Assembly: GCA_038087875.1 (NCBI GenBank)
Contig: CM075990.1
Coordinates: 1,738,001 to 1,802,000 of the forward strand
Direction: 5' to 3'
Origin: Malacoraja senta
Lineage: Eukaryota
Length of the DNA: 64,000 bases
Positions 7,504 to 62,439 of this stretch are shown here, one piece after another (the stretch's first letter is position 1; every line of letters starts with the position of its first letter). The notes under the pieces are model-generated. The model saw nothing but the letters and a program-made list of their open reading frames with translations. It did no database searches and was not told the DNA's origin. Made by a program: the position numbers and the translations under genes.

Positions 7504-7607
7504 GTCTGAAGAAGGGTTTCGGCCCGAAACGTTGCCTATTTCCAAAGAACGGCTTGTTGGTATAGATGCTGCTGCAACCGCTGAGTTTCTCCAGCATTTG
7601 TGTCTAC
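7504..7607 (+). mobile_element. Penelope pLTR-derived repeat with a minimal hammerhead motif (7506-7533)
   Basis: CTGAAGA-A-GGGTTTCGGCCC-GAAAC-GTT followed by the family tail gatgctgctgcaaccgctgagtttctccagca. Confidence 0.7.
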
Positions 7608-7650
7608 ACATGAGATCTGAATTGGTTTGTTTCTCGCTGTTTGTGTTTAG

Positions 7651-7737
7651 ACTGGAGAACAATGCATTGGGAGATTCCGGAGTGAAACTGTTGTCTGTGG
7701 CTCTGAGGCACCCTGACTGTAAAATACAGAAACTAGG
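7651..7737 (+). CDS. NLR gene LRR exon (87 bp)
   Basis: ttgtgtttag|A...GG|gtaagt; encodes LENNALGDSGVKLLSVALRHPDCKIQKL, a ribonuclease-inhibitor-type LRR; phase 2-2. Confidence 0.9.
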
Positions 7738-9140
7738 GTAAGTAGCAGACTCTGAGAGGAAGTGTACAATTATTGGGTGTCTGACACTGGACATTAATAC
7801 GGGTTGAACTCTCTTGTCCGGCATTCTGTGGTTTTGGATCTGTCCTACAGATCTACACAAATTAAATTCTAGCTATGTTCTGGTTAAGATCTAAAATCAA
7901 CTGAAATTTACACTCGCCAGCTTACGCAGTAAACAACTTACGTAAACGCACTTATAATTCACAATAGGTGGTCCCGTTTCCTGAATGACCTTTGTCATTG
8001 CAACAGGAGGATGGCGATGGCTTCCTGTCCGCTTCATAGTTATAAAAGCATTGCCTGGGCTCGCTGCTCTTCCAGTTTGGGCCACTGTTGGTGCGACACT
8101 GGGAAGGCGAGGGAGGCAGTGGAGAGCAACTCCTGGCCTAGTTGCTGACATCTTCCACAACGTGCTCCAGCGAGCTATCTTCTCACCTGCTGCCACTTTT
8201 TCAGCTCCTTCCACCACCCCCTCCTCATCCTCCTCCTCCTGTCACTGTCCGCTTTGCCTCTCCCCCTTCCACCGCTGACTTTCCTCCTCTCCCAGAGATG
8301 CCAATATATTCCAAGGTGGAGAAAGAGGAGGAGGTGACGGTGGAGGGGAGAGCTGACAAAGTGACGGCCGACAGGAAGATGTGGAAGCAGGCGAGCGGAG
8401 AGGGAGCCCCATGGTGACCGAGCGCACCCTGTCGGTGGAGGCGCCTGCAGAAAGAGCTGCCAGCCAGGGTCTACAACGTGAGCCGCAACAACAGCTGTGT
8501 CAACCGGACGGCGTGGCAGTCGGGAAAGAAGGGCTCGTTGGTGCAGACCAGCACTATTAGCACCCAGTTTTAAGGTGGAACCACACAATCTGCTGGAGTA
8601 ACTCAGCAGACTGAGTTCCCCAGAGTTGCTGCCTGACCTGCTGAGTAACCTCAGGAGTTTGTGTCGTTTTGTATCAACCAGTAATAACAGTTCTGTTTCT
8701 ACCTGGTTTTACGGTGATTCCGACGTGTAAAATTCGACTTGCATAAAGGTTTGCGTACAATGGGAGTGTCTGAACTCTGTAATATGACTGGTTAGCATGC
8801 AACAAAACATGGCAATAAACTAAACTGTACCTCATTAATCTCCCAGTGCAACTTTTGTGATCTCATCGGACAACTTCCTGATTTGCCAAAGCTTTTGGGT
8901 TACCAACAGTTCTTAGGAATGGAACCCCCAACAACACCTGGAGAGCCCTTTACTTAAAAAAAACCCAGTTCTTTGGCTCAGGGTGATGATCAGTCAGGCA
9001 TCAGAGTGATCTGCTATTTTTCTGTGGTCAAGTCCCAGTCAGGTCCCAAGGACTCCGGCATGATTAGTCATTGTGTTGATAAACATTCAGGATTGTTTCC
9101 AGTCTTTCTGTTTCCCTCATCCTCTCTCTCTAATTTCCAG

Positions 9141-9308
9141 GCTGAGAGATATTGGTCTCACAGATTATTGCACCAACTATCTCATCTCTGCACTCAGTAC
9201 AAACCAATCATTGACTAGTCTGGACTTGGGAAAAAACTCCTTAACAGACCGATCTGTCCCCGCTCTCTGCTACCTGACACGGATGCTCCCGAGTCTGAAA
9301 TGGATCGG
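9141..9308 (+). CDS. NLR gene LRR exon (168 bp)
   Basis: aatttccag|G...GG|gtgagt; encodes LRDIGLTDYCTNYLISALSTNQSLTSLDLGKNSLTDRSVPALC...; phase 2-2. Confidence 0.9.
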
Positions 9309-9452
9309 GTGAGTGTTTGTGTGAGCATTTAATGTAATAAAATATCAGTCGATCCGTGAGCTTTCCTGGTGTTGAAATATTGATCACTGCCTTTGTTATA
9401 GACACTGTTGTGCGATCTGCTTATTCCCTCCTTGTTTTCCAATCTGTTTCAG

Positions 9453-9540
9453 GCTGTGGGAGAATGCATTCAGTAGAGGTGGAGAGAATCAGCTGAAGTC
9501 TCTGCAGGGAACCAGACCTGGACTGAGTGTGTCTTTATGA
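9453..9540 (+). CDS. NLR gene terminal coding exon
   Basis: ctgtttcag|G; encodes LWENAFSRGGENQLKSLQGTRPGLSVSL then TGA at 9538-9540; in frame with the previous exon. Confidence 0.85.
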
Positions 9541-9850
9541 ACATCTCAATGTATATCTGTCACCACATCTGGCCTGTTTCCTGCCCACCCCTTTGAATGT
9601 CTATGCTTTGGATTTAGAATCCAATGGTTCCACCGGTTCCCAGGCGGACCCGAACATATAGTAAATGCAAGAGGTGGCTCTGCCATGTCACTCAGCTGCT
9701 GATCCACACCACAATGCCTCTGCCATTTATCGGGCTGGGTGTCTATGGTGGGAACTGGGGAATTGCAGAAAGGAACAGCCCAGGGGGGAGGGAGTTTCAG
9801 AGACCAATAATAGCATTTAGGGGTTTCTGGGGACAGATTGTTTTTAGAGC

Positions 9851-9956
9851 AATCTCCATGCTGAAGGACGTCGGTCTCACAGGTTTTTGCACTGAAAATC
9901 TTGCCCCAGTTCAAACCGCTCACTGATGGGTCTGGACCAGGGGAACAACTCCTTCA
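9851..9956 (+). pseudogene. Decayed duplicate of the 168-bp LRR exon
   Basis: Aligns to ~9132-9243 (LKDVGLTGFCTENL vs LRDIGLTDYCTNYL); acceptor mutated cag>cat; about 7-nt deletion. Confidence 0.8.
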
Positions 9957-12510: not shown

Positions 12511-12710
12511 CGGGAATATTTAAAAACCAGCCGTTGGAGGTGAGAGACAATGTGTGGTGTGAACAGCGAATAAAAGGAGGGCAGGCTCCATCGGAGCAGC
12601 CATTTTGAGGTGCTGCTGGTGATCAATGTGTGGCTTTGCTGAGTTCTGGGAGGTGGGCAAGCAGCACACAGGCGAGGGCAAGGATATTCATTTTTTCTTT
12701 TTCCCCAGAA

Positions 12711-25198: not shown

Positions 25199-26762
25199 AT
25201 ATCCTTCTCCATATCCTTCTCCATATCCTTCTCCATATCCTTCTCCATATCCCCCTCTTCCGCGGCCTCTGCCGCGTCCTCTTCCCCTGCCTCGGGAGTA
25301 ACTCCCTCGCCATCCTGTACCTCCCTTGTCCTGGTCTACTACTTGCTTTACTGCCTGCAACATAATCTTTGCCTTTCCCTTCTGTTTTTCCTCATCCCTC
25401 CGCACGTACACTTTCTGGGCCTCCGTAAGCAACTGAGGCAGTAGTTTCTCATTCCAATCATCCATCTTTCTAACTTCTTCCTTACATCAGGCCAGGATTT
25501 GGTCACGAAATTGGCCCTGAGCAGTTGTTTTCCTGCCTCTGAGTCCGGATCTATTCCGGAATATTGTTGCATGTTCTTCCTGAGTCTTTGAAGGAACGCT
25601 GTCGGGGCCTCGTCTTTTCTGCTGTCCATTTCAAATGCTCGTTCAAAATTCTGTCCTTTGGGTACTGCCTCTCTTATCCCTTTTATAATTATATCCCGCA
25701 GGTCCTTCATATTCTCTCGCCCTGCTGCTGTTCCCTTGTCCCAATCTGGCTCTTGTACTGGGAATTTATCTGCCGCCGCCGCATTTTGCTGCCCTGGCGG
25801 GTTCTCCTGTTCCCACTTTTTCATTGCCGCTGCCCTAATCATTTGCCTCTCCTCTGATGTGAAGAGATTCCCCATAATGGCCATCAACTTATCCCATGTA
25901 TAAGTGTTTGGCCCAAGGAATTGATCTAACTGTTCCGCCAGACCTAAAGGATCTTCAAGGAGGCTTTTCATCTCCTTCTTGAAGTTCCTTACCTCGGTAC
26001 TGGTTAAGGGGACATTAACAAATCCCATTCCCCCGTGGGGTCCTCCCATGGGTACCTCCTCAGGGGTCTAATTTTTATCGGTCTTTTTCTTACTCTGACC
26101 GACCTCCTGACTCCCTCTCCCGGTGGCGGGTGATTTAATTCATCTACCCCAGCCGCCTCCTGTCTTTCCATCTCCTTCTCGTCCTCACTCCTGGGGTCCG
26201 GTGGTTCACTGTCGGTGTCATCACCATCAGTAACTTCATTATTAGGTTCTTGTTTTACCCTGACCTTTCTCCTTTCCACCTGAGCAGGTCCGGGTGTCAC
26301 CTCTACCACCGCCGCCGCAAGTGGAGGCGGGGGTGGGATCGGTGGCGCTACTCTGGGTGGTGGGTGTACATAGGGAGGAGGTAGGTTCTCCAGTATATCC
26401 CATGGGGGTGAAGAGGGGCTTGACTGTTCAGCCTCTTCTTTTAATTTTAACAGATTACATCCCGTCTCCCCATGGTTTCTTCTATCAACAGGTTGGGTTT
26501 ATTATTCACATATACATTCAATGCCTGCCGCACCCAATCCTCATCTGACCCATCCTTCGGCCACCCGACCGAGTCTCCTTTGATCGGGTGTTTTGGCCAC
26601 TCGAAATAACAGAATCAAATCATTTTTGTCTTGTCCAATCCCTGGGTATTTCCCTGCCCCCAGAGGCTCAGCATTCGCCCCCAACGGACTATCAGGCAGA
26701 ATGCGGGGGTCGGGCTTACCGCCCTTCCCCTCCCTTTTGGGCTTTCCGTTTTCATTGCCCAT
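25199..26762 (-). pseudogene. gag: Endogenous retrovirus gag (gamma/epsilon-like), frameshifted, runs into the gap
   Basis: Start MGNENGK (Gly2); PPPY late domain at 26370-26381; capsid VPLTSTEVRNFKKEM...FLGPNTYTW and MHR-like KDEAPTAFLQRL; RG-rich tail and (YGEG)n. Confidence 0.85.
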
Positions 26763-34772: not shown

Positions 34773-35444
34773 CGCTCGCTGCAGCACCTGCCATGGAGCA
34801 GCCGCAGTGCAAGAGTCCCGGGCCGTCGGAGGCATCGGAAGCATTGCGCCTCTGCCGTGAGAGTCTTTGTGCCGAATTCGCCCTGGTTTCTGGTCGTGAT
34901 CCTTCGAAGAGTCTCTACCCGAAACCTTTAGAAGGGTCACGACCCGAAACGTCACCCATTCCTTCTCTCCAGAGATGCTGCCTGTCCCGCTGAGTTGCTC
35001 CAGCATATTGTGTCTCTCTTCGGTTTAAACCAGCATCTGCAGTTCCTTCTCACACAATGAGACCCAACAAGACGACTTTGCAGCTAGTACCAGGTAGCAG
35101 CCGGGTGGGGGAGGGACGGAGGGAGAGGGGATGTTAAAGAAATCGATATTCATACTCATTCGGGGAAATTAGTTGATACCTGTCTTTAAATTGATATTTT
35201 GTTCTTCTTTAAATGGAAGTCTTGGATTCATGTATCGCGGGAATAAATAAGCAAAGGCAAGATGGTAAATATAAACTACAAATTAACTTCAGAAAATGAA
35301 ACTAGTAGAGATGAACTTTGCCCTTCACTTTACAAAGAATAACCTCAGGGATTATGCAGTAAATGTCATTCAAATACTCTGCAACCTTGGGATAATATTG
35401 TTCATGTTCAAATCGATAGGTAAGTCTTGATTTGTTCAATATTA

Positions 35445-35715: not shown

Positions 35716-36627
35716 CATTAATTGTAATGCGAATAATTGGGCCTCCGCTGATATGCCGGGATGATTACCCAATATTACTGACTATTAATCCATTGTATTA
35801 TTGATTATATATGTTGCGCCCGTTCTCCTTTATCTGTACATTGTGAGCGGCTTGCTTGCATTTACCGGATAGCACGCAACAAAAGCTTTTCCCTGTACCT
35901 CGCTACAGGTAGCAACAGTAAACTAAATCAATCTATTTACATGTATCTATGTGTTGTTGCTTTAACCGGCCTGTTAAGGTGCAGCAACTGAGATTGTCAT
36001 TGTTCTGATGTCGCTGCACACGACAGCTAAACATTCGTCTCTTCATTCTACACTTGAAATGATCACAATGACATTTAAATGGCATTTGGACAGGTACACG
36101 TGCAGGAAGGAACTGCAGATGCTGGTTTAAACCGATAGACACAAAGTGCTGGAGTAACTCAGCGGGTCAGGCAGCATCTCTGGAGGGAAGGAATGGGTGA
36201 TGATTCGGGTCGAGACTCTTCTTCAGACTGAAGGTCTGGTTAATTGGCTTGGTATAAGTGTAAAGTCCCAGTGTGTGTAGGATAGTGTTAATGTGTTGGG
36301 GTTGCTGGTCGGTGCGGACTCGGTGGGCCGAAGGGCCTGTTTCCGTGGTGTATCTCTAAACTGAGCCCTGTCCGGCTAGCAGGGCTGTGTAGGGCCGAGT
36401 GCCGGGACACGGTGACAACTGGCTCTGATCTCCACAAAGTCAATCACATATAGAGCAGCGCTGCAGATCAATGGGCCTCTGGTGCTTGGAGTCAGTCCAC
36501 AGACACAGAGAGGAAATTGGATGTTACTCCGGCTTTTTGCGTCTATCAGTGACTTGAAGAGAGGGCTGGACAACGAGTGACGCAGCTGGTCGCGGCTCCC
36601 CTGATCTACGCTATTCTCACGCACTTA

Positions 36628-40963: not shown

Positions 40964-42844
40964 AATGAATATCATCCATTCCGGAAGTTCTATTTTTCTG
41001 TTGCCATTTAAACTCACTTGGATTTCAATCAATTCAATGTAAAAGTAATTGGGAATGAGGAGCATTGGAACAAAAATTTGCCCTCAGTAATATTAACTGT
41101 AATATAATAATGTATGCATGTTTGTAGGTGCTATCAAAACAAAGATATTTTTTATCATTATTGTGTTATGAATACCACAAAACATATTAATGTACTCTCA
41201 AGATCACATTTAATAGAATAATATTGCTTAAATATATAGTTTGTGTTTCGGAAGGGGGACTTTGTATTTCGGAAAAGTCCCAGCTGAGGGGAAGACTGCA
41301 AAATACTGAAAATATTTGGGGTGAAAATGACTTCAGGACAGTTTGTTAGGAAAATGAAGGAAATGGTAACAGAATACTTATACGGCTGAGATTAAAGAAA
41401 TTGATAAAAAATATTCAAAAGTTCCTAGTTTAGAGCTCTATAAGAATAGAGTTGAACTTCAATTGAGACATGATTTGTTATTAGTATCACCGATTGAGAA
41501 TCAGCTACTTAAAACCAAAAGTCAATTTTATATACATGGTGAAAAATCTGGTAAATTACTCGCTAATCAGTTGAAAGTGGTGTCGGCCAAACGTCAGATT
41601 ACTAAAGTGAGTAAACGGGATGGTACACTGACTGTAGACCATGACGAAATTAATAAATCTTTTCAGGAATTTTATATCTCCCTATACCAATCAGAATTTC
41701 CTATTGATTCCAATATAATTTTTAAAGAAACTGAACTTGCCAAATTTATTTATATAATGAGTCTCTGTTGTTAGACGAACCCATCAAGGAGAAAGAAATA
41801 CAGAAAGCAATCCTTTCGATGAATTCTAGTAAAGCTCCCGGTTTAGATGGGTTTACAGTAGAATTTTTAAAGTATTTCTCAAGTTTACTGTCTCCCTGGC
41901 TATGCAAGGTTTTTAAAGAAGCCTTTTTAATGAATAGATTACCACAATCCTTTTATGAAGCATCTATTTCTTTAATTCTTAAAAAAGATAAAGACCCTAC
42001 TGAAGTGACATCATATAGACCTATATCACTGTTAAATGTAGATTCCAAAATTCTTTCCAAAATATTAGCTCTGAGATTGGAAAATATTTTACCGCAAATG
42101 ATCTCTGAAGATTAGACAGGTTTTTATTAAAAATCGTTACTCATACTTTAACGTTAGGAGATAAATGAATATCGTATATAAAGCATCAAATAAAACTCCA
42201 GCATGTGTCATTTCACTTGATGCCGAGAAGGCGTTTGATAGGGTAGAATGGGAATACTTATTCAATAGACTTGAAAAATTTAAGATTGTTCCAAAATGTA
42301 TTTCTTGGATCAAGCTGATATATCATATACCTCAGGCTTCTGTACTTACCAATAATCAGAAATCCCCTTTTTTCAGACTCTTTCAAGGTACTAGCCAGGG
42401 CTGTCCTTTAAGTCCTTAACTGTTTGATATCGCTTTGGAACCTTTGGCCACCGCTATTAGGGAATCCTTGGTATTTTTGGTATTGTCCGTGGGAATAAGA
42501 CACATAAGCTATCTCTTTATGCAGATGATCTGTTATTATTCATTTCTAATCCTGAGAAATCTATTCTGGCAATAGTAGCACTACTTAATCAATTTAGTAG
42601 TTCTTCTGGTTATAAACTAAATCTTAGTAAGAGTGAGCTTTTTCCATTAAACAATCTAGTTTCGAATTATGGACAGTTTCCATTTAGACTGACTACCGAA
42701 TGTTTTACTTATTTAGGTATTAAGATTACCAAGAAACACAAGGATTTATTTAAAGCTAATTTTACACCATATCAAACAACAGTTTACTAAATGGTCACCA
42801 ATGTCCTTATCTTTAATCGGCCGAATCAATGCTATTAAAATGTA

Positions 42845-43596
42845 CAGGTACAGAGCCAGGAGCTCGCGACCGAATGCGCTGTATTTGGTCTACGCGCGGT
42901 TGAGGTGCCGGCTGAAGAAGGCCAGGGGCCGCCAACCTCCGTCCGTCAGTTGCTCCAGCACGGCACCAACTGCCGATTCCGAGGCGTCCACCGTGAGAGC
43001 AGTCAGGGCATCTTCCCGCGGGTGCACCAGCAATACGGCCCGAGCAAGGGCCTCCTTCGCGCCGCCAAATGCTGCCACTGCCTCGTGGATCCATTCGATG
43101 TTCTTGTGCTGCCCACCCGCCAGAAGTTGATACAGCGGCCGCATGATGTGGGCCGCGGATGTCACAAAACGATGGTAAAATGCCATCATCCCGACAAACT
43201 CCTGCAGGCCGCGCACCGTGCGTGGGCGGGGAAACCGACGGATGGCGTCAACCCTGTCCGGAAGGGGAACTGCGCCTTGCGAAGTCATGCGGTGGCCGAG
43301 GAAGTCGATCTCAGTTACCCCAAAACGGCACTTGGCTGAGCCGCTGACAGAGCTGCCGGAGCTGGGCGCAGTGCTCCTGCTGCGAGTGGCTGGCCACCAG
43401 GATGTCGTCTAGGTAAACAAAGACAAAATCGAGGTCGCGACACATCCCGTCCATTAAGCGTTGAAAAGCCTGCGCGGCGTTCTCAAGGCCGAACGGCATC
43501 CGCGTGAACTCATAAAGTCCGAACGGCGTGATGATCGCCGTCTTGGGTACATCCTCCGGGTGGACTGGGATCTGGTTATAACCCCGTACCAGATCC

Positions 43597-43641
<45 letters not shown>

Positions 43642-46600
43642 ATGTATTAGAAGTACATTACATTACAACCACATACATTAATACTCATCATTTATATCTT
43701 CTTACAATTAATGTACTCCCTTTATTTATTTTTTTACACTAGAAAAAGAAAAGATTGAAAGAGAGAAGAAAGTGAAGGAAAAAGTGCAAGTGTAGAAAAG
43801 TGTAGAAAATGTAACAACAAAAAAGGACGAAGACCCTATAAGAGCGAAATTAAAAACAAAAAGAAAAAGAGTTAAGAAATAGGCCCTAAGAAAAGAAAAG
43901 AGAAAGAGAAAAAAAGAGAAACAAATGTTTTTTTTTTGAGCATCACGTAAATAGGACATACCAACTCTTCAACTATCATCCCCCCTTACCTGACCTCAAT
44001 TTTTTATTTTTTTTAAAGTACTTTTGCACCCTATGTTTGTAATAATTCTATAAATGCAGACCACGTCAGGTGGAAGTGATCTGGTTTACCTGCTAGGAGG
44101 AGTCTTATCTCTTCTAGGTGTAATGTTTCAAACATATTTGAAATCCACATATTTATAGTTGGTATTGGAGCCTTCTTCCAAAATTTTAGAATTAGCTTTT
44201 TTCCAGTTATTAACCCATAGTCCATTAATTTCTTTTGAAACACATTTAGTTCTGGATCATCTTCCGTTATTCCGAAGATAATCCATTCTGCTTTGGGTAT
44301 CAGTCTTGTTTTAAATAACTTTGTAAAGATTTCAAAAATTTCATTCCAAAATTTTTGAATTTTTGTACAGAAGACAAATGAGTGCGCTATAGTTGCTTCT
44401 TGGGATTGACATTTATCACAAATAGATGATACGTTTGGGAAAATTTTATGAATTTTAGTTTTCGAATAATATAATCTATGTAAAATTTTAAATTGTATTA
44501 AAGTGTGTCTTACATTAATCGAGCATTTATGCACGTTTAATAAGTATTCATTCCAACTTTCCTTTGAAATTTTAATAGCTAACTCTTGTTCCCAGTCTCT
44601 TCTGATACCCTCCGTAGATGGTATTTGTGCATTTAAGATAATATTATACAAATATGATATTAAGTTTGCTGATTCCGCTTTTATCTGCATTGCCTCGTCC
44701 AGTACATCTGCTAGGTTATTATGATGATCTTTTGTATATTTTTTCAAATAGTCGCATTTTTGAAAGTATTTAAAATATTGATTATTTCCGAGTTTATATT
44801 TTATTTGTAATTGTTGAAATGAAAGTAATTTTCCAGTTTCATACAAGTCACCAAGCGTTTTAATTCCTAGTCTATCCCATTGTGTATCCACTTTTGAAAA
44901 TATTGTAGCCCCAGCCAAATGGGCGGTGAAGTCCTGAATGTGTGGTACGGGTATCGATCCGCGGTTGTTGCGGCATTCAGCCAACGGTAATCCCCGCAAG
45001 GTCGCCAGCCCCCGCTTGCCTTAGCGACCATGTGGAGTGGGGACACCCATGGGCTGCTTGAAGGGCGGACGATCCCCAAGGACTCCATCGTGCGGAATTC
45101 CTGCCGTGCCAGACACAGTTTATCCGTCGGCAGTCAGCGTGCTCGTGCGTGGATAGGTGGGCCGGTAGTTTGTATAAAATGTACCACTCCGTGACTGGGG
45201 GTCGATGACCGAAACTGTGGGGTCAGGATATCCGGGAACTCGGTCAAGATCCGAGCGAAGCAGGAATCCACGGATGACAGGGGGCGTCCCACCGGCTGAT
45301 CCAAACGTAACATGATCGGCTCCATCGTAGCGGCGTTGACCAAGCGCTGACGCCTGACGTCCACCAGGAGGGAATGCGCCCGGAGGAAGTCGGCCCCGAG
45401 CAACGGCTGGGAGACATCAGCGATAGTGAACCGCCACGAGAAATGGCAGGAGCCGAACACGATCAGGACCATGCGCGCTCCATACGTGCAGATGGGGCTG
45501 CCATTCGCCGCAGTGAGGACGGGCCCCCGCTTACCGGAACGAATGTCGGCCAGCGAGGGGGCAGGATACTGAGCTCCACTCCAATATCAAAGAGGAAGCG
45601 GGTCCTGGAGCGCCGATCCCAGGCGAAAAGGCGGTGAATTTGGCCGGCCGCCACGGGAACTATTGGCAGCCGGCCCAGGCATTTCCCGGGAACGTGCATG
45701 GCTGGCGGCATAGTTGTGCTGCAGCACCTCAGCGCTGATGCTAGTAGCACCAGCGCCTCATGTTGGTGGCACTTGGAGCTTGCTGGCTCCTGTTGGTGGC
45801 ACTTGCAGCTTGCTGCCGCTGGACTGCAGGTGCAGTACCCTACACGGCCGCGGGGGGCGATCTTATGGGCCGTCAGGCTGGAGCTCTCACTCCTTCCACA
45901 GCTCCCCCGCCCCACCGGAGGAAATCGGTGCGCCTGCCGACGGCCGGCGCGTTGACGTCATCAGGCCGCGTCGTCCTCAGCGCATCCCCGTGTCTGCTGA
46001 CGGCCAGCGCGTTGACGTCATCAGGGCGTGCCATCCACAGCGCGTCGGATGGCACGCCCTGATGTCGGCGAAGGAGGCGTCTGTGAGCTGAAGACGGATG
46101 TGCCCATCCAGGAGAGCAACCATCTCCTTTAGGATGCTTGATGGCCGTCGGTCACCTAGGCCCTCCATATGAAGGAGCCTGGCAGCACGCTCAATCCTGC
46201 TGAGTCTATAAATCTGGAGCAGGAGCTCCTTAAGGCCGAGGTATTTATCGGTGGCCGGGGGGGGCTGCGAGGAAGTCCGTGACCTCTTCAACCGTGTCCT
46301 GGTCGAGGGCCCCCACCAGGTAATAGAAACGGGTGGCATCTACTGTGATGCCCCGCAGGTTGAATTGGGCCTCCGCCTGCTGGAACCAGATGTGCGGCCG
46401 GGTGGTCCAGAAGATAGGCAATTTTACAGAGACCGCGTCCAGAGACAGGGCCTGGCCGGCCTCTGAGGTGGAAGGGCATTCTGCTTTCTCCATCATGATG
46501 ACAATGGAGCATCGGGGTCACCAATGTGGTGCGTAGGACTCGAAATAAAAGAGAGGAGTCAGGTATTTCGAGAGGCACCTTTATTTGTGTTCCTCCCGGT

Positions 46601-48470: not shown

Positions 48471-48967
48471 GGCCAAGTGTTTGAATATGATCTGATTTCC
48501 ATACATGGATATACTAAGATCATTCATGTGCTGCACCTGTTGACCAGAGCCTGGTTCTACTGTGGGATGTAATTAGGAATGTGATTTAGCCTAACCTTAT
48601 TCATAGCTAATGCAATTTAAAGCATGAATATTGCATTCAATTGTAAGATTAAAAGACTCGCTACAGTGTGTACCAGATTGCACAATTTCAAGCTGAAAAC
48701 TGCAAAAGCTCCATACCATTAGCTCCGTACCAACAGCTTCCACATTCTCCGCCCCCTCCCCCCCCCCCCCCCCCCCCACCTTGGTCGCTACGCTCCCTCG
48801 GGCTTGGTCTCTCGCAATTTCTCACTCCTAACTCTCACCCAATGTTGGCAGCCCTGCTTAACCCTAACCAGTTTGAAGCAGGGATTTTTGCCCGAAACAT
48901 CACCCATTCGTTCTTTCCAGAGATGCTGCATGTCCTGCTGAGTTACTCCAGCTTTTTGTGTATCTGC

Positions 48968-49360
48968 AATTGGACCTTCTTGCTCCTAAACTCAAATACT
49001 CTCGCAATGAAGCCCAATATGCCACTTGCTTTTTCACTGTCTGCTCTACCTGCATGGTTACTTTCAGTGACTGATGTACAAGCACACCCAGGTCTCGTTC
49101 CACCTCCCTTTTTCTTAATCTGACACCATTCATATAATAATCTGCCTTCATGTTCTTGCCCACCAACGTGGATAACCTCACGTTTATCCACTTATACAGT
49201 AGATGAGGTTAGAGAGGTGCGGTCTCACCTACAACTGTTGTTGAGGTCCCTGTATGGAGTCGAGGGAGGAGGTATAAGGACAGGTGTTGCATGCCCTATG
49301 GGTGCAGGGGAAAGAACCTGGGGAGGAGGTGGTTCGGGTGGGAAGGGATTACTTGATTAG
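48968..49360 (-). mobile_element. Adjacent CR1 (48968-49191) and Penelope (49192-49360) fragments
   Basis: ERDLGVLVHQSLKV; the second part aligns to 13308-13495. Confidence 0.7.
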
Positions 49361-50460: not shown

Positions 50461-50477
50461 CATATGCAGGGAATGGA

Positions 50478-50845: not shown

Positions 50846-51384
50846 GATAGAGATGGATATGGATTATGGACAGGAGAATATGGATTATGTGCAGGTAGGT
50901 ACGAAATATGGTCTATGTCCCAACAAACAAACCAAGCAGAAGGGAGAAATCTACAGTATATAATTAAAAGTCTCATCTTGACCACTTCCTGTGAGTGCTA
51001 TGTATTGATTTTAGAAAAAACACTACCATATATCGCTATAATTTTCTGGCCATCTTACTCACAGTGCTCCTCCTCTGAGGCAGCCCTGAGGATTTTTCTG
51101 ATCAATGAAAAATAAAAAGGTTATGAGTGTTTAAAAATCTTGAGATCAGCTGATTGGTCCTCTCGCCTGTCAATCACCACGATGAAGGTAATGCCCCTTC
51201 CAGTGAGGGCAGGACTATAAAACCCCGGATGCCTCGACGTGAGTCAGTCACTCTGGAAGATCACAAGGGAGAGTCCACAACTGAGATTCTAAGCTGTGAA
51301 TCAACTAAACTGTGAGTCTGCAATATACTTGCAATAAATGATTTGTTAGCCCATAATGAAAATGCAATGAGTTGTTTGGCAATT

Positions 51385-51932
51385 TGGTGGCACTCTGCTT
51401 GAAATGCTATGAAATTGAATTTGGTGGCCTGCACTGTGCTTGAAATGCTATGAAATTGAATTTGGTGGCCTGCACTGTGCTTGAAATGCTATGAAATTGA
51501 ATTTGGTGGCCTCCACTCTGCTTGAAATGCTATGAAATTGAATTTAGTGGCCTGCACTGCTTGAAATGCTATGAAATTGAATTAGATGGCCTGCACTCTG
51601 CTTGAAATGCTATGAAATTGAATTTGGTGGCCTGCACTCTGCTTAAAATGCTGTGAAATTGAATTTGTTGGCCTGCACTGTTTGAAATGGAATGAATTGA
51701 ATTTGGTGTCCTGCACTCTGCTTGAAATACTATGGAATTGAATTTGGTGGCCTGCACTCTGCTTGAAATGCTATGAAATTGAATTTGGTGGCCTGCACTC
51801 TGCTTAAAATGCTGTGAAATTGAATTTGGTGGCCTGCACCACTTGAAATGGTATGAAATTGAATTTGGTGTCCTGCACTCTGCTTGAAATACTATGAAAT
51901 TGAATTTGGTGGCCTGCACTCTGTTGAAATGG
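51385..51932 (+). repeat. 41-bp minisatellite, about 13 copies
   Basis: Unit gcactctgcttgaaatgctatgaaattgaatttggtggcct. Confidence 0.95.
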
Positions 51933-51950
51933 AATTTCAAGGAATAGCCA

Positions 51951-52145
51951 TGAGTGAACTGCCAGCCCACCAGCCCTGAGTGACTGAGCTGCAAGCCCAT
52001 CAGGCCTGAGTGAGCTGCCAGCCCACCAGGCCTGAGTGACTGGGCTGCCAGCCTACCAGGCCTGAGTGACTGAGCTGCTAGCCCATCAGGCCTGAGTGAC
52101 TGAGCTGCCAGCCCACCAGGCCTGAGTGAATGAGCTGCCAGCCCA
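51951..52145 (+). repeat. 30-bp minisatellite, about 6.5 copies
   Basis: Unit tgagtgactgagctgccagcccaccaggcc. Confidence 0.92.
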
Positions 52146-52217
52146 AAAATCCATTCGGCCCACAATGTCCATACTTGCCCTCTGGAAATCAGTCCCTTTG
52201 GCCCACAACACCCATAC

Positions 52218-54217
52218 TCTACAATAATTATAGGCAGCATGGAGTAAATGAGGTGCTTGAGGAGTATAAAGAATGTAAAAAGAATATTAAGAAATAAATT
52301 TGAAAAGCTAAAAGAAGATATGAGGTTGCTTTGGCAAGTAAGGTGAAAGTAAATCCAAAGGGTTTCTATAGGTATATTAATAGCAAAAGGATAACAAAGA
52401 ATAAAATTGGTCCATTAGAGAGTCAGACTGGACAGCTATCTGCAGAGCCAAAAGAGATGGGGGAGATATTGAACAATTTATTTTCTTCGGTATTCACCAA
52501 GGAGAAGGATATGGAATTATGTGAGGTAAGGGAAACAAGCAGAGTAGCAATGGAAACTATGAGATTCAAAGAAGAGGAGGTGCAGACACTTTTGAAAAAT
52601 ATGAAAACGGATAAGTCTCCAGGTCCTGACAGGATATTCCCTAGGACATTGAGTGAAGTTAGTGTAGAAAGAGCAGGGGCTATGACAGAAAAAATTCAAA
52701 TGTCATTAGAAATGGGAATAGTGCCGGAGGATTGGCGTACTGCGCATGTTGTTCCGTTGTTTAGAAAGGGTTCTAAGAGTAAACCTAGCAATTATAGACC
52801 TGTTAGTTTGACGTCAGTGGTGGGCAAATTAATGGAAAGGATACTTAGAGATAATATATATAAGCATCTGGATAAGCAGGGTCTGATTAGGAACAGTCAA
52901 CATGGATTTGTGCCTGGAAGGTCATGTTTGACTAGTCTTCTTGAATTTTTCGAAGAGGTTACTAGGGAAATTGATGAGAGTAAAGCAGTGGATGTTGTCT
53001 ATATGGACTTCAGTAAGGCCTTTGACAAGTTTCCTCATGGAAGGTTGGTTAAGAAGATTCAATTGTTGGGTATTAATGGTGGAGTAGCAAGATGGATTCA
53101 ACAGTGGCTGAATGGGAGATGCCAGAGAGTAATGGTGGATGGCTGTTTGTCAGGTTGGAGGCCGGTGACTAGTGGGGTGCCTCAGGGGTCTGTGTTGGGT
53201 CCACTGTTGTTTGTCATGTACATCAATGATCTGGATGATGGTGTGGAAATTGGATTAGTAAGTATGCAGATGATACTAAGATAGGTGGTGTTGTGGATAA
53301 TGAAGTAGATCTTCAAAGTCTACAGAGAGATTTAGGCCATTTGGAAGAGTGGGCTGAAAGATGGCAGATGGAGTTTAATGCTGATAAATGTGAGGTGCTA
53401 CATCTCGGCAGGAGAAATCAAAATAGGACGTACTTGGTAAATGGTAGCGAATTGAGGAATGCAGTTGAACAGAGGGTTCTAGGAATAGCTGTGCATAGTT
53501 CCCTGAAGGTGGAATCTCATGTAGATAGGGTGGTAAAGAAAGCTTTTGATGTGCTGGCCTTTATAAATCAGAGCATTGAATATAGAAGTTGGGATGTAAT
53601 GTTAAAATTGTACAAGGCATTGGTGAGGCCAATTCTGGAGTATGGAGTACAATTTTGGTCGCCTGATTATTGGAAGGATGTCAACTAAATAGAGAGAGTA
53701 CAGAGGAGATTTACTAGAATGTTGCCTGGGTTTCAGCAACTAAGTTACAGAGAAAGGTTGAACAAGTTAGGTCTTTATATTTTGGAGTGCAGAAGGTTAA
53801 GAGGGGACTTGATAGAGGTCTTTAAAATTATGAGCGGGTTAGACAGAGTTGACGTGGATAAGCTTTTCCCATTGAGAGTAGGGACGATTCAAACAAGGGT
53901 ACATGACTTGAGAATTAAGGGACAGAAGTTTAGGGGTAACATTAGGGGGAACTTCTTTACTCAGAGAGTGGTAGCTGTGTGGAATGAGCTTCCAGTGGAA
54001 GTGGTGGAGGCAGGTTCGATTTTATCCTTTAAAAATAGATTGGATGGGTATATGGACGGGAAAGGAATGGAGGGTTATGGTCTGAGTGTAGGTAGATGGG
54101 ACTAGGGGGAAGTAATATATATTTTTTTTTAAATAATATATATATTTTTTAATGTTCGGCACGGACTTGAAGGGCCGAGATGGCCTGTTTCTGTGCTGTA
54201 ATGGTTATATGGTTATA
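52218..54217 (+). mobile_element. CR1 LINE (second subfamily), 5'-truncated
   Basis: ORFs 52331-53284, 53293-53688 and 53719-54105; near-identical to 20755-22860. Confidence 0.93.
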
Positions 54218-54319
54218 GTGCTCCAGAAAGCCCCCCCCCCCCCCCCCCCACTGGCCACCAATATTTGAATTGGTGGAGAGGTCGAATATTGCGTTGGGGG
54301 ACCAGCCCTCCCGTGTCAT

Positions 54320-54939: not shown

Positions 54940-55660
54940 TGACAGGCGGTTAGTGCTACACGCGGTTAGTACACAGTTTACTTGGCCTTACAAATCAGTG
55001 GGAAAGATTACAGCCCACTCTCGTCGTCCGTGCCTCAGGCTCTCACTTGTTGTATGCCCATCTATGCATTGTGGCAGTGTTTCCTGACGACATCCTTTCC
55101 CAAGTAAAACCTTCAGGTACCTGAAACATCTTCTTTGGATTGCACATTGTTTACATCTATTTGAACAAACGTCAGATAGCATGGAGTAACTAACGTGACA
55201 ATTATGCCCCCAGCCGTGATATCATACTCATGCTTCACCTCTCAATCGGATCGGATTTGATCTACTCCAGGTCTTAAGACCTCCTCCTTTTTACACGACC
55301 AGTCCCGTAATTCGAGGCAATGTCCCCTCGTTGCAAAAGCGCTCGGTGTGAACACATCTTGGCATCTACCTTGTTATACCCCTTTGGATCATATATGTTT
55401 ATTAAATTCCCTATATTCCCCCTAAATTCTACAGGATAGGGACCAAACTTGTTTAGGCTCTTGTGATAGGCGACAAGAACTGAACGCGAAGGAGGAATGG
55501 AGAGAAAGAAGCATTCAAGATCTTCACCTCATGTTTATGGAGACATTCTTGTGCGCACCTTCTGCTTTCAGGAAACATAAATGAGACTGATAAATAGCAA
55601 ATTGCTTGATAAGAGAAGCTCAGATTTCGAAATGATTTAATCAAAACCACTCATGATTCA

Positions 55661-55742
55661 CGACGAGGATGGGATTCGAACCCACGCATGCAAAGCACAA
55701 TGGATTAGCAGTCCATCGCCTTAACCACTCGGCCACCTCGTC
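55661..55742 (-). tRNA. trnS-GCU: tRNA-Ser(GCT)
   Basis: GACGAGGTGGCCGAGTGGTTAAGGCGATGGACTGCTAATCCATTGTGCTTTGCATGCGTGGGTTCGAATCCCATCCTCGTCG, 82 nt. Confidence 0.96.
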
Positions 55743-56597
55743 TCCTTTTTGGGAGGGTTAGGACTGTTTTCCATCTCTGATAGTCTGCTTTCAATGTAAA
55801 GATTTGCATGCATTTAATGTAATAGAATTGATTGATCCCGTACCTCACATGGCGTTTTAATCGTCAGTATGCAGAATCGGAGACTCTGTGAATACCGGGA
55901 AATTAGGTTTTGGTGCCAGTGATCTTAAGTCTCTGCAAACTGACGATTAAAACGGCATGTGCATCTCCAGGATCAATCAATTCAATCACATCAAATGCAT
56001 GCGGATCTTTACATTGAAAGCAAAAGACATTAAAGATAGTCGAAGTTGTGCAGGCACTGCAGGGCAGCTGGTAAATCATACTTATGGGTGCTTTACACAA
56101 CGTGCTGGGAAGGAATCACCAGATGTAGAAGGGGTCCATGGTGAACATGACAGACAGATATTTGAAAGCCCGGGTGCTTGAAGAGATGGCAGCAATATTG
56201 TGTGTAGGATGGAACTGCAGATGCTGGTTTACACCGAAGAGAGACACAAAATGCTGGAGTAACTCAGTGGGCCTGGCACCATCTCTGGAGAAATGAATAG
56301 GGGACGTTTCGGATCGAGACCATTCTTCAGAATGAGATTCAGGGATGTGGGTAACTAGCGGTATGAAAAGGTACGGGACAAAGCAGAGATTACTCTGATG
56401 ACCAAAGAGCCTACAATGGTCCATTGTTGAATGAGGAGGAGGTGAGTAAGAACAGTGAAACTATCAAAACGACTGGGGTGGGAGAGTGATGGGGAGAGAA
56501 AGGTAATGCAAGGGTTACCTGAAATTAGAGACATCAATTATCATACTTGCTGTGTTCTTAGGAATGAAATTAGGTTCATTTAAGATGTTTCATGTAC

Positions 56598-56949
56598 AAT
56601 TTTGGAGTTAAATCTAATTAGGGGTTGGGTGATGGGTGGGGAGGGACGCGAGGCAGGTATATCATCACCTTTTTTTTCTTCTTTCTGTTTTTGTCTTTTT
56701 ATTTCTTTACGTCTTCCTTATTTCTTTTGCTTACTCACTCTTTGGCTACACTACTTTGGTAGTCTAGGGGTTCTATCCTTGCACACTCCAATTTTTCTCT
56801 CTCTTGATTTTTCTCTCTTCTTTTCTCTTAACTATAGCTAAAAGTCAAAATTCAAGCTGTATAATAACTGTATTATGTCATATGCCGCTGGTTATATTTT
56901 TGTACACTTGCTTCTGATAAATAAAAAAATAAAAAAATGTTTAAAAAAT
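56598..56949 (+). mobile_element. Short poly-A-tailed retroposon (L1-type 3' UTR)
   Basis: 13-bp TSD atgtttcatgtac at 56585-56597 and 56950-56962; A-rich tail. Confidence 0.8.
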
Positions 56950-57393
56950 ATGTTTCATGTACTAGAGAATGTATTCATTATGTGCGGAGTCCAATGTTGT
57001 GCTTCAATAAACTCACCGCGACGGACGTTTAGGTGTGAAGTTAGAAATGACTTTGACAAGCAATGGGTAGATGATATGTCAGAGCTGTTCTAAGACAACT
57101 GAACCATCCTCTCACCAGCTATAGAGTGGTCCTGGCCTTCCATCTACCTCATCGGAGATATTCGAGCTATCTTTAATCGGAATTTACTGGATGTTATATT
57201 GTACTACAGACAGTGTGGATTGAAAAGCTTCACTATGTTCCCAAAACATAACAATAAGCCTGGAAATAGGAAGCGTTTTAGGTTTTTCCAAAATCTGCCA
57301 TTGGAAAGCGAAGAGCGCACACAAAAGCTAAAGTGCAAAACATGAAAGCAGACTATCAGTGATGGAAAACAGACCTAACCCTCCAGAAAAGGA

Positions 57394-57475
57394 GACGAGG
57401 TGGCCGAGTGGTTAAGGCGATGGACTGCTAATCCATTGTGCTTTGCATGCGTGGGTTCGAATCCCATCCTCGTCG
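57394..57475 (+). tRNA. trnS-GCU: tRNA-Ser(GCT)
   Basis: Identical 82-nt sequence in the opposite orientation. Confidence 0.96.
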
Positions 57476-58362
57476 TAAATCGTGACATTTGGCAGACCTG
57501 AGTGGTTTTGATTAAATCATTTCGAAATCTGAGCTTCTCTTATCATCAAGCAATTTGACATTTATCAGTCTCATTTATGTTTCCTGAAAGCAGAAGGTGA
57601 GTGCAAGAATAAGTCTCCATAAAGATGGGGTGAAGATCCTGACTGCTTCCTTCTCTTCATTCCTCCTTCGCGTTCAGTTCTTGTTGCCTATCACAAGAGC
57701 CTAAACACATTTGGTCCCTATCCTTTAGTATTTAGGGGGAATAAAGGAGATCTTACTAAACATATATGATCCAAAGTGGTATAACAAGGTAGATGCCAAG
57801 ATTTGTTCACGCCGAGCGCGTTTGCAACGAGGGGATATTGCCTCAAATTACGGGACCGGTCATGTAAAATTGAGGTACTTATCTCATCCAGCTATTAGTA
57901 TTGGTTCCAGGATACAGTATTGGGTATCTTTTCTTCTCAGACGCATAAATGTCTTCACAAAGGGCAGCGAATCACTGAGAGTTTCCACTGACAAGATTTA
58001 TGTTTGTTACATTTAGTGGACAATATATTTTGAAAGATCGGGATTTGCGTAGTAGGAAAATTTCCAAAGGAGAAGGTCTTAAGACCTGGAGTAGATCAAA
58101 TACGATCCGATTGAGAGGTGAAGCATGAGTATTATATCACGGCTGGGGGCATAATTGTCACGTTAGTTACTTCGTCCTAGCTGACGTTTCTTCAAATAGA
58201 TGCAAACAATGTGCAATCTAACCTGAAGGTTTTGATTGGGAAAGGACATTGTCTGGAAACAGAGCCACAATGCATAGATGGGCATACGACGAGTGAGAAC
58301 CTGAGGCATGGATGACAAGGGTGGGCTATATGGCCAAATAAACTGTGTACTAACCGCATGTA

Positions 58363-58434: not shown

Positions 58435-58732
58435 TGGAATATTGTGTGCAGTTTTGGCCTCCTAATTTGGGGAAGGATATTCTTGCTATTGAGGGAATGC
58501 AGTGTAGGTTCACGAGGTTAATTCACGGGACACAGGATTGCGGGACTGTCATATGATGAAAGAATGGAGCGACTGAGCTTGTACTCACTGGAATTAAGAT
58601 CACCAAAACCTAATTTCCCGGTATTCACAGAGTCTCCGATGACGGGAATTCTCCCTGTGTAGCGCCTCTCACTGCCTCGCCATCAATCCATTGCAGCCCA
58701 GGACAGGGTTTCAATAGATGGCTCTTAACATC

Positions 58733-59921
58733 TAGTCAAGTCAAGTTTACTAGTAACACACACATACAAGATGTGTAGTGAAATGAAAGTGGCAATGCCT
58801 GTGGATTGTGTGTAGTGAAATGAAAGTGGCAATGCCTGTGGATTGTGTGTAGTGAAATGAAAGTGGCAATGCCTGTGGATTGTGCAAAAATAACAGACCA
58901 ACAGAACAGAATAGAACAGAACCAGATATTTTTTTACAATAAAAAAAAAAAGACACAACACAACAGTAAATTAGTAAATTGGTCCCTGGTGAGATAAGAG
59001 TTTACAGTCCTGATGTCCTGTGGAAGAAACTCCGTCTCATCCTCTCTGTTTTCACAGCGTGATAGAGAAGGCACTTGCCTGACCGGAGCAGCTGGAACAG
59101 TCCATTGCTGGGGTGGTAGGGGTCCCTCATTATGTTGCTGGCTCTGGATCTGCACCTCCTGGTGTATAGGTCCTGCAGGGGGTGAGTGTTGTTCCCATGG
59201 TGCGTTCGGCTGAACGCACTACTCTCTGCAGAGCATCCCTGTCCTGTGCAGAGCTGTTCCCAAACCAGATTGAGATGTTACAAGATGCTTTCTACAGCCC
59301 CAGAGTAGAAGCACTGAAGGATCCTTAGAGAGACTCTGAATTTCTTCAGCTGCCCAAGGTGGTAAAGGCGCTGCCTTGCCTTACTCACCAGTGTAGCAAT
59401 GTGTGTTCTCCATGTCAGATCCTCTGTGATGTGGACTCCCAGGTATTCAAAGCTGCTCACTCTATCCACAGTAGTCCCATTTATCTCCAGTGGCGTGTAT
59501 GTCCTCGGATGTTGAGCCCTTCTAAAGTCCACAATCAGCTCCTTAGTTTTAGTGACATTCAAGAAGAGGCTGTTGTCCTGACACCAGAGTGCCAGGTCAG
59601 CCACCTCCTCCCGGCAGGCCTTCTCGTCGTTATCGGAAATGCGGCCCACCACCACTCATCAGCAAACTTGATGATGGAGTTGGAGCTGAACCTGGTCACA
59701 CTGTCATGTGTGTACAGGGAGTACAGTAGGGGGCTCAGGACACAACCCTGGAGGGATCCTGTGTTCAGGGTGAGGGGGTTGGAGGAATGTCTCCCCATCT
59801 TGACCATCTGGGGCCTGGCGATGAGAACGTCCAGGACCCAGGCACACAGGGGAGTGTTCAGCTCCAGTTCCAGCAGCTTCTCAGCAAGGCTGGAGGGGAC
59901 TATGGTATTGAAAGCTGAACT
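58733..59921 (-). mobile_element. Rex1/Babar LINE, 5'-truncated, with three 37-bp repeats in the 3' UTR (58772-58885)
   Basis: FSSAFNTIVP...LNTGSLQGCVLSPLLYSLYTHD...KFAD; KTKELIVDFRR; KARQRLYHL; gacttgact tail. Confidence 0.88.
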
Positions 59922-60447
59922 GAACATCATCGCTCCCTCCGTCATCAGCACCAGTTTTAAAGCTTTGGATGCTTCGTAATTTCCTTGCACATCTCGGAAC
60001 AGGCCCTCGTCATTAGATTCAAATAAATATAGAAACGTTTACCACAAATACGGTCCCTCATGGCCCACCACGCCCATATCGTCCGTGACGCCCTCTACGC
60101 CAATACGATTTTCCCGTTTTGGTCCGTACCCATCCATTCTTTTCCAGAGAGTCGAGTCAAGAGTGTTTAATTGTGATATGTACCGACAATGGCACAACAA
60201 AATGCTTTCTTGTAGTGGTATAATAAACCTGAAAGACAATAGATAGCATTAAAAAATAATAAATAAAGTTGTTTACTCCACAGTATAACTGTCGGCTAAT
60301 TCTGCTGTGAAGTCAGAGAACTGGTGGGCAGTTAACTGCCGCCATCTCTCCGTAATATCATGCAATAAAGTCCCTTGAAGAAAACGTACGAAGTCTGTTG
60401 CTTTTCGTTTTCCTTTAATTTCCCTCTACATTAATTTCTTCCACAGA

Positions 60448-61958
60448 TTTTTTTCCTGCATCTAGCATGTCAAGTCCTTTTATAAATTTATATGTTTCTA
60501 TAAATGAGATCCCCACTCATCCGTCTAAATTCCAGTGAATACAAGCCCAGTCTTTCCAATCTTTCCTCATATGACAGTCCCGCCATCCCGGGGATTAACC
60601 TCGTGAACCTACGCTGCACTGTCTCAATAGTAAGGATGTCCTTCCTCAAATTAGGAGACCAAAACTTCACACAATACTCCAGATGCGGTCTCACCAGGGC
60701 CCTGTACAACTGCAGAAGGACCTCGTTACTCCTATACTCAAATCCTCTCGTTATGAAGGCCAACAAGCTTTTTCACTGCCTGCTGTACCTGCATGTTTAC
60801 TTTCAGTGACTGGTGTACAAGGACACCCAGGTCTAGTTGCACTTTAATTTTTCCTTATTTGACACCATTGGGATAAATAAAACTGCCACCTTATTCTTGC
60901 CGCTAAAGTGGATAACCTCACATTTATCCACATAATACTGCATCTGCCATGCATCTGCCCACTCACTCAACCTGTCCAAGTCACCCTGCAACCTCCCAGC
61001 ATCCTCTTCACATTTCACACTGCCAGCCAGCTTTGCGTCATCTGCAAATTTGCTAGTAAAACTTTTAGTTCCATCATCAAAATCATTAATATATGTTGTA
61101 AATAGTTGCGGCCCCAGCACCGAGCTTTCAGGCACTCCACTCGCCACTGCCTGCCATTCTGATGGGGACCCATTTATTCCAACTATTTGTTTCCTGTCTG
61201 CCAACCAATTCTCCATGCATATCAATACCCTACCCCCAATACCATGTGCTCTAATTTTGCGCACTAATCTCCTGTGTGGGACCTTATCAAAGGCTTTCTG
61301 AAAGTCCAAAAACACTATATCCACTGGCTTTCCTTCATTCATTTATCTTGTCACATCTTCAAAAATTTCCAGATGATTAGTCAAGCAGGATTTCCCCTTC
61401 ATAAATCCATGCTGACTTGGACCAATCCGTTTACTGCTATCCCCACCGCCGATGTCAGGCTAACTGGTCTATAATTCCCCCTTTTCTCTCTCGCTCCTTT
61501 CTTGAAAGGTGGGATAACATTAGCTACCCTTGAGTTCTCTTATTAAATCTGGTTCATTGGACAAGACTAAATCCAGAAGTGCCTTCTCTCTGGTAGGCTC
61601 CAGTACAAACTGCTCTAAGAATCCACCTCATAGGCACTCTACAAACTCCCTTTCTTGGGGTCCAGAACCAACCTGATTTTCCCAGTCTATGTGCATATTG
61701 AAATCTCCCATAACCACAGTGGCATTACCTTTGTTACATGCCAATTTTAACTCCTGCTGCAACTTGCACCCTATCCCCAGGCTAATGTTTGGGGGCCTGT
61801 AGATAACTCCCATTAGTGTCTTCTTACCTTTACAATTCCTCAATTCTATCCACAGCGACTCTACATCTTCAGTCCCTATGTCACCCCTCGCAAGGGACTG
61901 AATTTCATCCCTCAGCAACAGAGCTACTCCACCTCCCTGCCCACCTGCCTGTCCTTCT
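60448..61958 (-). mobile_element. CR1 (EN and RT fragments with internal deletions) running into the gap
   Basis: VIYRPP...MGDFN; DFQKAFDKVPH; SKFADDAKL; RPHLEYCVKFWSP. Confidence 0.9.
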
Positions 61959-62158
61959 NNNNNNNNNNNNNNNNNNNNNNNNNNNNNNNNNNNNNNNNNN
62001 NNNNNNNNNNNNNNNNNNNNNNNNNNNNNNNNNNNNNNNNNNNNNNNNNNNNNNNNNNNNNNNNNNNNNNNNNNNNNNNNNNNNNNNNNNNNNNNNNNNN
62101 NNNNNNNNNNNNNNNNNNNNNNNNNNNNNNNNNNNNNNNNNNNNNNNNNNNNNNNNNN
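61959..62158. other. Assembly gap (200 N)
   Basis: Run of N. Confidence 1.
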
Positions 62159-62439
62159 GCAGCAAGCAAGAATTTCATTGTCCTATCTGGGACACATGAC
62201 AATAAACTCTCTTGACTGGACTTGACTTAAGGTAGATGCAGGAGTACTCACGGACAGAGGCAACAAAACACACAGAATGAGGCCGGAGCAGTCTGAAGGT
62301 GGACCTCGACCCGATAAATTCACCTATTCCTTTTCTCCAGAAATGCTGCTTGACCCGCTGATTTACTCCAGCATTCTGTAGCATTCTGTCTATCTTAAGA
62401 GCAATCAAAGACAGAAGCAGGTGGAGTCACGGGCAGGGG

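Follow-up and report, generated by a model that had tools for sequence, protein, structure and literature searches.

Short hammerhead-bearing repeats in Malacoraja senta are probably copied from uncut Penelope RNA

We have analyzed a family of repeats carrying a hammerhead ribozyme motif in 64,000 nucleotides of the Malacoraja senta genome (assembly GCA_038087875.1, contig CM075990.1, positions 1,738,001 to 1,802,000), hereafter the window, and in the genome as a whole. The motif copies represent the terminal module of a Penelope-like element (PLE) that is autonomous and carries an endonuclease. The short copies are likely run-off cDNAs made by the Penelope enzyme from its own uncut RNA, and not a separate ribozyme-driven element; we give this reading a probability of about 0.68.

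Results

The motif lies in the terminal module of a Penelope-like element

A protein search of the genome gave 150 scored matches among 20,266 candidates, and 20 loci, chosen mainly for long open frames, were examined. In three of these (L113, L115 and L120), units repeat head to tail with a period of 3,867-3,997 nt, every junction bearing the motif, and L113 carries one open frame of 1,212 amino acids encoding reverse transcriptase (RT) and GIY-YIG domains. Each junction reads, in order, the stop codon, a pyrimidine-rich untranslated region (UTR), the sequence TCAGT and the hammerhead core, numbered here from its first base (+1 = C3), with a predicted cut after +28; some 65 nt more follow, then a tail to about +130 and a putative ATG at about +164. 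The terminal module, placed between the GIY-YIG stop and the next open reading frame (ORF), comprises the core, about 65 nt downstream and an optional tail of about 36 nt. In 11 ORF-linked random copies the UTR up to the motif varies widely in length (about 86-295 nt) and sequence while the motif is constant; a twelfth candidate, whose upstream sequence was not UTR-like, was excluded from the references.

The parent ORF joins RT, a CX2-5CxxC linker and, at the C terminus, a GIY-YIG domain in one frame (Pfam RVT_1, E 6e-6, and GIY-YIG, E 1e-3, both under Pfam's cut-off). The same layout is described for the endonuclease-bearing Neptune and Nematis PLEs, as are partial tandems, inverted 5′-truncated copies and an optional tail of 30-40 nt (Craig et al. 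2021, PMC8557442). By that description the Cys-rich linker is in keeping with the Neptune/Nematis type, and the domain layout would fit a placement in either clade.

A 28-nt pattern of the motif has 41,995 exact matches in the 1.94 Gb genome and none when reversed, and a descriptor search gave 24 matches in 0.8 Mb and none in shuffled sequence; these empty controls exclude a chance origin of the motif. In a sample of 80 evenly spaced 10-kb pieces from contigs C1-C9, a profile search yielded 330 matches, or one per 2.4 kb, with none in the reversed control, which extrapolates to about 0.8 million family fragments genome-wide. The density of one per 5 kb given in the first-pass annotation of the window was thus too low, the window itself holding about one per 3 kb. 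Both the exact and the extrapolated number far exceed the 4,000-9,000 or so copies reported, with a different descriptor, for coelacanth and Xenopus (Cervera and De la Pena 2014, PMC4209133). One short copy has been multiplied at least 18-fold inside a host tandem repeat with a period of about 2-3 kb (C1:3.87-4.04 Mb, loci L145-L160).

Copies begin at the edge of the core and not at the cut site

Alignment to 33 reference copies succeeded for 322 of the 330 matches, and in 319 the upstream sequence was long enough for the 5′ end to be placed relative to C3. These ends lie between -8 and +5 in 141 copies and further upstream in 52; ten fall at +26 to +32, around the cut site. The density of ends is about 14 per base at -8 to -1, about one per base at -20 to -9, and 0.3 further up. 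Pyrimidine-rich DNA precedes 16 of 92 non-inverted short-start copies, the random rate being 131 in 5,000; these 16 are probably long copies of unreferenced subfamilies, which would leave about 125 fixed-start copies. The 3′ ends peak at +91-95 and at +128-132, which places the two sites some 36 nt from each other. Contigs from public runs, most of which belong to other organisms by their codes, have loose ends at these same start and end places.

No peak of insert ends was found at the predicted cut site by two methods, applied to 319 and 341 matches. With a retrained profile, 12 of 341 starts fell at +25 to +32 and 15-20 in the neighbouring bins; starts simulated at the cut site were detected in 249 of 252 cases, 200 of them inside the +25 to +32 bin. 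Since starts at the cut site are no commoner than in the neighbouring bins, the template of the inserts was not RNA cleaved at the ribozyme site. What looked like a second 5′ peak, at +33 to +38, was mostly an older unreferenced subfamily and disappeared with the retrained profile.

A target-site duplication of 6-15 nt flanks 25 of 49 solo short copies of at least 84% identity (two representing one duplicated locus), against 41 of 952 shuffled pairings. A head-to-head inverted partner accompanies 49 of the 141 fixed-start copies. Exact junctions at which two copies meet head to head, each arm beginning at the start, number about 1,030 genome-wide (2,058 strand matches); exact head-to-tail junctions number 87. 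Three other origins of the boundaries were rejected. Recombination between repeats is ruled out for the solo copies, which have no UTR and do have target-site duplications; an antisense intron (GT near +92, AG at +1) fails as a general rule because the commonest haplotype has no GT (column 92: T 91, C 34); and a permuted or upstream cut site at about -3 is dismissed by reasoning only, the spacing permitting no helix.

The alternative that keeps most weight, though we consider it unlikely, is that the RNA starts elsewhere and that RT stalls or switches template on a longer RNA, either where the hammerhead has its base or where the pyrimidine-rich 3′ UTR begins; the short copies would then be 5′ truncations of the ordinary sort, concentrated at a hot spot. 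Such elements are typically strongly truncated at the 5′ end (PMC8557442), the ends spread over about 12 nt with microhomology, and a pyrimidine tract lies just upstream in every subfamily examined, although UTR length and sequence differ. Stalling accounts less well for the steep fall in end density upstream of -8 and for the common stopping place of both arms of the head-to-head pairs; moreover, the 5′ peak at the core edge stays constant across subfamilies with different UTRs. Run-off at an RNA 5′ end remains the better reading of these ends.

Structure and conservation of the hammerhead motif

By its sequence, the motif belongs to the minimal hammerhead class of Penelope terminal repeats, a class defined, extra base included, by Cervera and De la Pena (2014, PMC4209133), who found cleavage to be low even in dimers. 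It shares with that class the core boxes, the extra base between A9 and 10.1, the G10.1-C11.1 pair, the palindromic 15.2-16.2 without loop III, the location in a terminal repeat, and a majority of copies that are dispersed single motifs tied to truncated elements. The first-pass annotation was right to recognize in Penelope terminal repeats a minimal type I hammerhead whose palindromic helix III is ACGU. It had listed the extra A after the core as a caveat, which is in fact a feature of the class (PMC4209133); the base is found in 163 of 176 core-covering random copies. Helix I, described as 2-3 bp, is indeed short, but only 2 bp were found: of the 120 copies in which position 2.3 is occupied, 94 have an A-C mismatch at the third position. 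Helix II and helix I measure 4 and 2 bp here, against 7-8 and 4-5 bp in Schistosoma; helix I of D. virilis also has 2 bp (PMC4209133).

The core (C3-A9, G12-A15.1, U16.1-H17) is intact in 71 of the 176 copies; 47 retain core and helix II, and 32 the whole motif. CpG decay is seen in both pairs: the 10.1-11.1 pair is GC in 107 copies and GT in 33, and the 15.2-16.2 palindrome is CG in 93 copies and CA or TG in 55. The CpG positions G12, 11.1, 15.2 and 16.2 are down to 71-79% conservation. The non-CpG core columns are 92-96% conserved, no more than many non-core columns downstream, from which it follows that the dispersed copies are in neutral decay. The positions that vary between subfamilies are N7, loop II, 11.4, H17 and 1.1, all with tolerated or one-sided (U-A/U-G) changes; the variation touches five of six free positions and none of ten non-CpG core positions (Fisher p=0.0014, with positions classed after the table was seen). 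Rfam hammerhead covariance models gave no match at E<=1 on the window or at E<=10 on 17800-18600.

Fold energies, which leave out the tertiary core, were calculated for five copies. For the monomer, the hammerhead fold reached -3.9 to -4.5 kcal/mol and the best fold -9.4 to -11.1 kcal/mol; for the double hammerhead, the figures were -6 to -7 and -24 to -32 kcal/mol. The best predicted fold pairs the core or GGGU with the 3′ flank, and is about 5-7 kcal/mol more stable than the monomer fold. For the four bases that follow the cut site (window 18420-18445(+)), the 5′ strand of helix II is a better pairing partner than helix I; this modeled pairing, kept by the subfamily variants, is a possible off-state.

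A second conserved pyrimidine tract, ending in AG and followed by ATG, lies about 20 nt past the predicted cut in all subfamilies (window 18440-18465(+)) and resembles a splice acceptor. No GT-AG joint at either candidate acceptor was seen among the joints listed in contigs presumed to be RNA, 84 and 16 further joints lying outside those listed; splicing, expression and cleavage are neither supported nor contradicted by this result.

Next in order, and likewise improbable, comes the proposal that the motif is no longer a ribozyme, its conservation being that of a core promoter in the DNA or of an RNA element bound by protein, or that the 5′ boundary is a splice acceptor. The 2-bp helix I and the more stable competing helix, which subfamily changes in the flank preserve, speak for a lost ribozyme, yet the folding program ignores the tertiary core and lineage variation occurs only where a hammerhead tolerates it. 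A pyrimidine tract and CAG precede the core in nearly all ORF-linked copies and the Drosophila Penelope intron ends at helix I (PMC4209133), as a splice acceptor would suggest; however, no short copy starts with a shared upstream exon, the upstream sharing in 13 of 92 non-inverted copies being UTR-like or duplicated flank.

Short and ORF-linked copies share their main haplotypes

The two main haplotypes are common to short and ORF-linked copies (24 short and 10 long for one, 11 and 6 for the other, with 41 of 143 copies unassigned). In 20 of the 87 head-to-tail loci that were examined there are two, at most three, units and no arrays. Neither tRNA prediction nor Rfam tRNA models picked out any of the copies in the window, and no tRNA-derived polymerase III head was detected there. 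The first-pass proposal of a separate non-autonomous, ribozyme-bearing retroposon is therefore not supported: the main haplotypes are shared, head-to-tail units are few, and the ends avoid the cut site.

Such a unit would be a non-LTR (long terminal repeat) retrozyme- or SINE-like element that is transcribed, cleaves itself and is re-inserted by the Penelope enzyme. We hold this for the least probable explanation: the short copies are true insertions with target-site duplications and outnumber the ORF-linked ones, any transcribed short copy carries the copy-end sites, so that some could be re-copied, head-to-tail junctions exist, single contigs in three public runs join tail end to start, and one haplotype was seen as short copies only, but against it stand the missing ends at the cut site, the lack of arrays and of a tRNA-derived head, the main haplotypes common to long copies, and the retention of the whole motif in so small a part of the core-covering copies.

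The known non-LTR retrozymes are likewise short, non-coding, hammerhead-bearing and related to Penelope terminal repeats (PMC7229834; bioRxiv 10.64898/2026.07.22.740005). They form tandem arrays with mostly canonical type I hammerheads and circular RNA, whereas the copies found here are solo or head-to-head, carry a minimal hammerhead and are bounded off the cut site; a retrozyme-like tandem organization was not found at the 20 head-to-tail loci examined.

Family copies in the window

A loose core pattern has six matches in the window and the profile search 21-22; out of 21, 15 reach the core region and six are tail-only. The 15 are the 14 places listed in the first-pass annotation, all of them family copies at the coordinates given there, and one copy, at 17737-17660 (-), that has suffered a deletion. 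A strict descriptor, which asks for the core, a helix II of 4 bp with a closing G-C or C-G pair and palindromic 15.2/16.2, is passed by four copies, with C3 at 7506(+), 17993(-), 18412(+) and 20666(-); they are those annotated as core-intact at 7506(+), 17963(-), 18409(+) and 20635(-). The two said to have a weaker stem II, at 19464(-) and 56300(-), do keep the core and have lost the 10.1-11.1 pair (19494(-) and 56330(-)). Not all copies are short and free as had been supposed, since those at 12771, 17963, 18409, 19464 and 56300 run upstream into the Penelope 3′ UTR or the GIY-YIG end.

The annotated RT/GIY-YIG element ending in a motif copy (12711-14175) is a real remnant. Its decayed, 5′-truncated ORF, located by tblastn at 13035..14185 on the minus strand, begins mid-RT, is frameshifted, and retains the C-terminal part of RT, the Zn-finger linker and GIY-YIG (E 1e-48 to 1e-51 against the intact frame of L113). 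Its terminal repeat (12701..12804, minus strand), preceded by a pyrimidine-rich 3′ UTR, has a mutated hammerhead core in sense orientation about 235 nt past the GIY-YIG stop. A young head-to-head inverted pair of 5′-truncated copies, each with GIY-YIG end, UTR and intact hammerhead, occupies both strands of 17898..18543, with the tail on the plus arm only. Two further 5′-truncated copies lie on the minus strand, one at 19368..19720 (GIY-YIG end, UTR, core, broken helix II, tail) and one at 56196..56560 (UTR and tail, broken helix II). The segments 19366-19720 and 56196-56560 are 86% identical, flank beyond the tail included, which suggests an old local duplication.

Two short solo copies have an intact core. 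The first, at 7503..7607 on the plus strand, carries a 10-nt insertion, has its predicted cut after 7533 and is flanked by a 16-nt target-site duplication (left copy at 7483..7498 on the plus strand, one mismatch to the right copy at 7608-7623). The second, at 20571..20667 on the minus strand, has an 11-nt duplication (20558-20568 and 20670-20680). More decayed are three copies spanning 17556..17846 (17556-17652(+), the internally deleted 17737-17660(-), and 17772-17846(+)); a short head-to-head pair with degenerate core on both strands of 23601..23830 (23690-23601(-) and 23701-23830(+)); a copy with tail at 34926..35056 (+) that lacks the first core bases; a short copy with tail and degenerate core at 36100..36231 (-); and degenerate copies at 48868..48971 (+) and 62288..62398 (+), the latter short. 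Tail-only matches without core form an inverted pair on both strands of 8574..8693 and lie also at 1585-1629, 16807-16866 and 18521-18599.

The NLR gene and other features of the window

An NLR-type gene extends over 1673-9520 on the plus strand, with an exon for NACHT, winged-helix and HD2 domains at 1673-3478 (NACHT confirmed by Pfam) and LRR exons at 7651-7737, at 9141-9308 and near 9454, as predicted by translation and splice signals. The intact copy at 7503..7607 lies in an intron of this gene and ends 44 nt before the first predicted LRR exon. Its predicted cut site is 118 nt before that exon, which bears out the earlier placement on the sense strand of an NLR intron about 120 nt upstream of an LRR exon. 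Given the genome-wide density of the family, such a copy is expected by chance, and the two NLR introns hold four family matches against about 2.3 expected. The location carries no signal and no host function is indicated; it is unlikely that a lone motif with a 2-bp helix I would cut the pre-mRNA.

Elsewhere, open frames at 24992-26498 on the minus strand, beside an assembly gap, resemble what we take to be a broken retroviral gag region, and minus-strand frames at 30035-33900 and 42800-46300, similar to RT, RNase H and integrase, presumably represent two decayed Gypsy-like LTR bodies. Two LINE copies (20897-22730 and 52218-54051), 93-95% identical and in opposite orientation, are 30 kb apart, and many further LINE RT remnants are scattered across the window. 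There are four tRNA genes (Asp, Met and two Ser, at 23086-23159, 24511-24582, 55661-55742 and 57394-57475), both tRNA-Ser genes lying inside a 3-kb inverted duplication at 55009-58330. Minisatellites occur at 4278-4453, 51372-52159 and 62441-62963, with periods of 22, 41, 30 and 22 nt.

Discussion

We propose that the element's endonuclease would nick the target, and that reverse transcription would begin inside the RNA at one of the two 3′ sites, by analogy with the anole element in vitro. The cDNA would run 95-135 nt to the RNA 5′ end just before the core and be joined there by means of microhomology. The head-to-head pairs would arise where both target strands act as primers, and longer copies would derive from read-through tandem RNA. 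The RNA 5′ end would most likely be a transcription start within TCAGT, which we take to resemble an initiator. An initiator-like TCACT has been described in a rotifer Penelope repeat (PMC3846280), and an internal TATA-less promoter in Drosophila Penelope (PMC2377424). The putative ribozyme, which would be weak and dependent on dimers and protein, does not set the insert ends, and its fold would likely be under selection only in active lineages, the dispersed copies decaying neutrally.

The closest experimental parallel is the Poseidon element PAc of the green anole (Frangieh et al. 2024, PMC11167929). There, two internal RT start sites bound the tail, both target strands are extended, hammerhead mutants insert normally, and cleavage needs protein. 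The likeness extends to two 3′ ends bounding a tail of 30-40 nt past the hammerhead, to an uncut RNA template, and to the lack of RNA ends at the cut site. The two elements differ in that the ORF here would start about 164 nt after C3, beyond the tail, while the PAc ORF begins at stem II, and in the Cys-rich linker that here separates RT from endonuclease; a fixed 5′ boundary for short copies in the genome does not appear in the parts of PMC11167929 on which we draw.

Several observations weigh against run-off copying from a fixed RNA start. The 5′ ends spread from about -7 to +4, many reaching -5 or -6, with no single start base, and an extra G before AGT, as from a cap, was not evident in the 100 listed matches when read by eye. 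No RNA 5′ end was found among the assembled contigs of runs presumed to be RNA. As for the motif, the core is no more invariant than many positions downstream of it, and two-sided compensatory change is missing from helix II: in a comparison of close subfamilies, the helices showed only one-sided U-A/U-G variation, at 10.4-11.4 and 2.1-1.1. One older haplotype has 12 short copies and no long ones, a long reference for it being absent from the set. Finally, the anole mechanism belongs to another clade.

Hammerheads in Penelope terminal repeats have been known since 2014, and the motif itself is a rediscovery. Lunse, Weinberg and Breaker have reportedly described PLE hammerhead variants that cleave as dimers, and may already list this motif. 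What is added is the map of insert ends, of which we found no counterpart in the consulted parts of PMC4209133; no paper on the fixed 5′ boundary of short copies turned up in the literature searched, whose coverage of PLE hammerheads is incomplete. The map gives genome-scale support for uncut RNA as the template, in agreement with one in vitro study, and predicts where in the transposition cycle the RNA starts, a testable point. It also carries a warning, as descriptor counts of genomic ribozymes in such genomes will mostly record dead by-products.

More tentatively, and at odds that we judge to be well below even, the roughly 300,000 fixed-start copies may be a fossil primer-extension map of Penelope RNA in vivo. 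The RNA would start at the first hammerhead bases, the conserved competing helix would block the ribozyme until its refolding by the element's protein, and most transposition events would become inserts of 95-135 nt through priming inside the uncut RNA. If this were true, the motif would be a combined promoter and RNA switch, and the family one of the densest ribozyme-motif repeats in a vertebrate.

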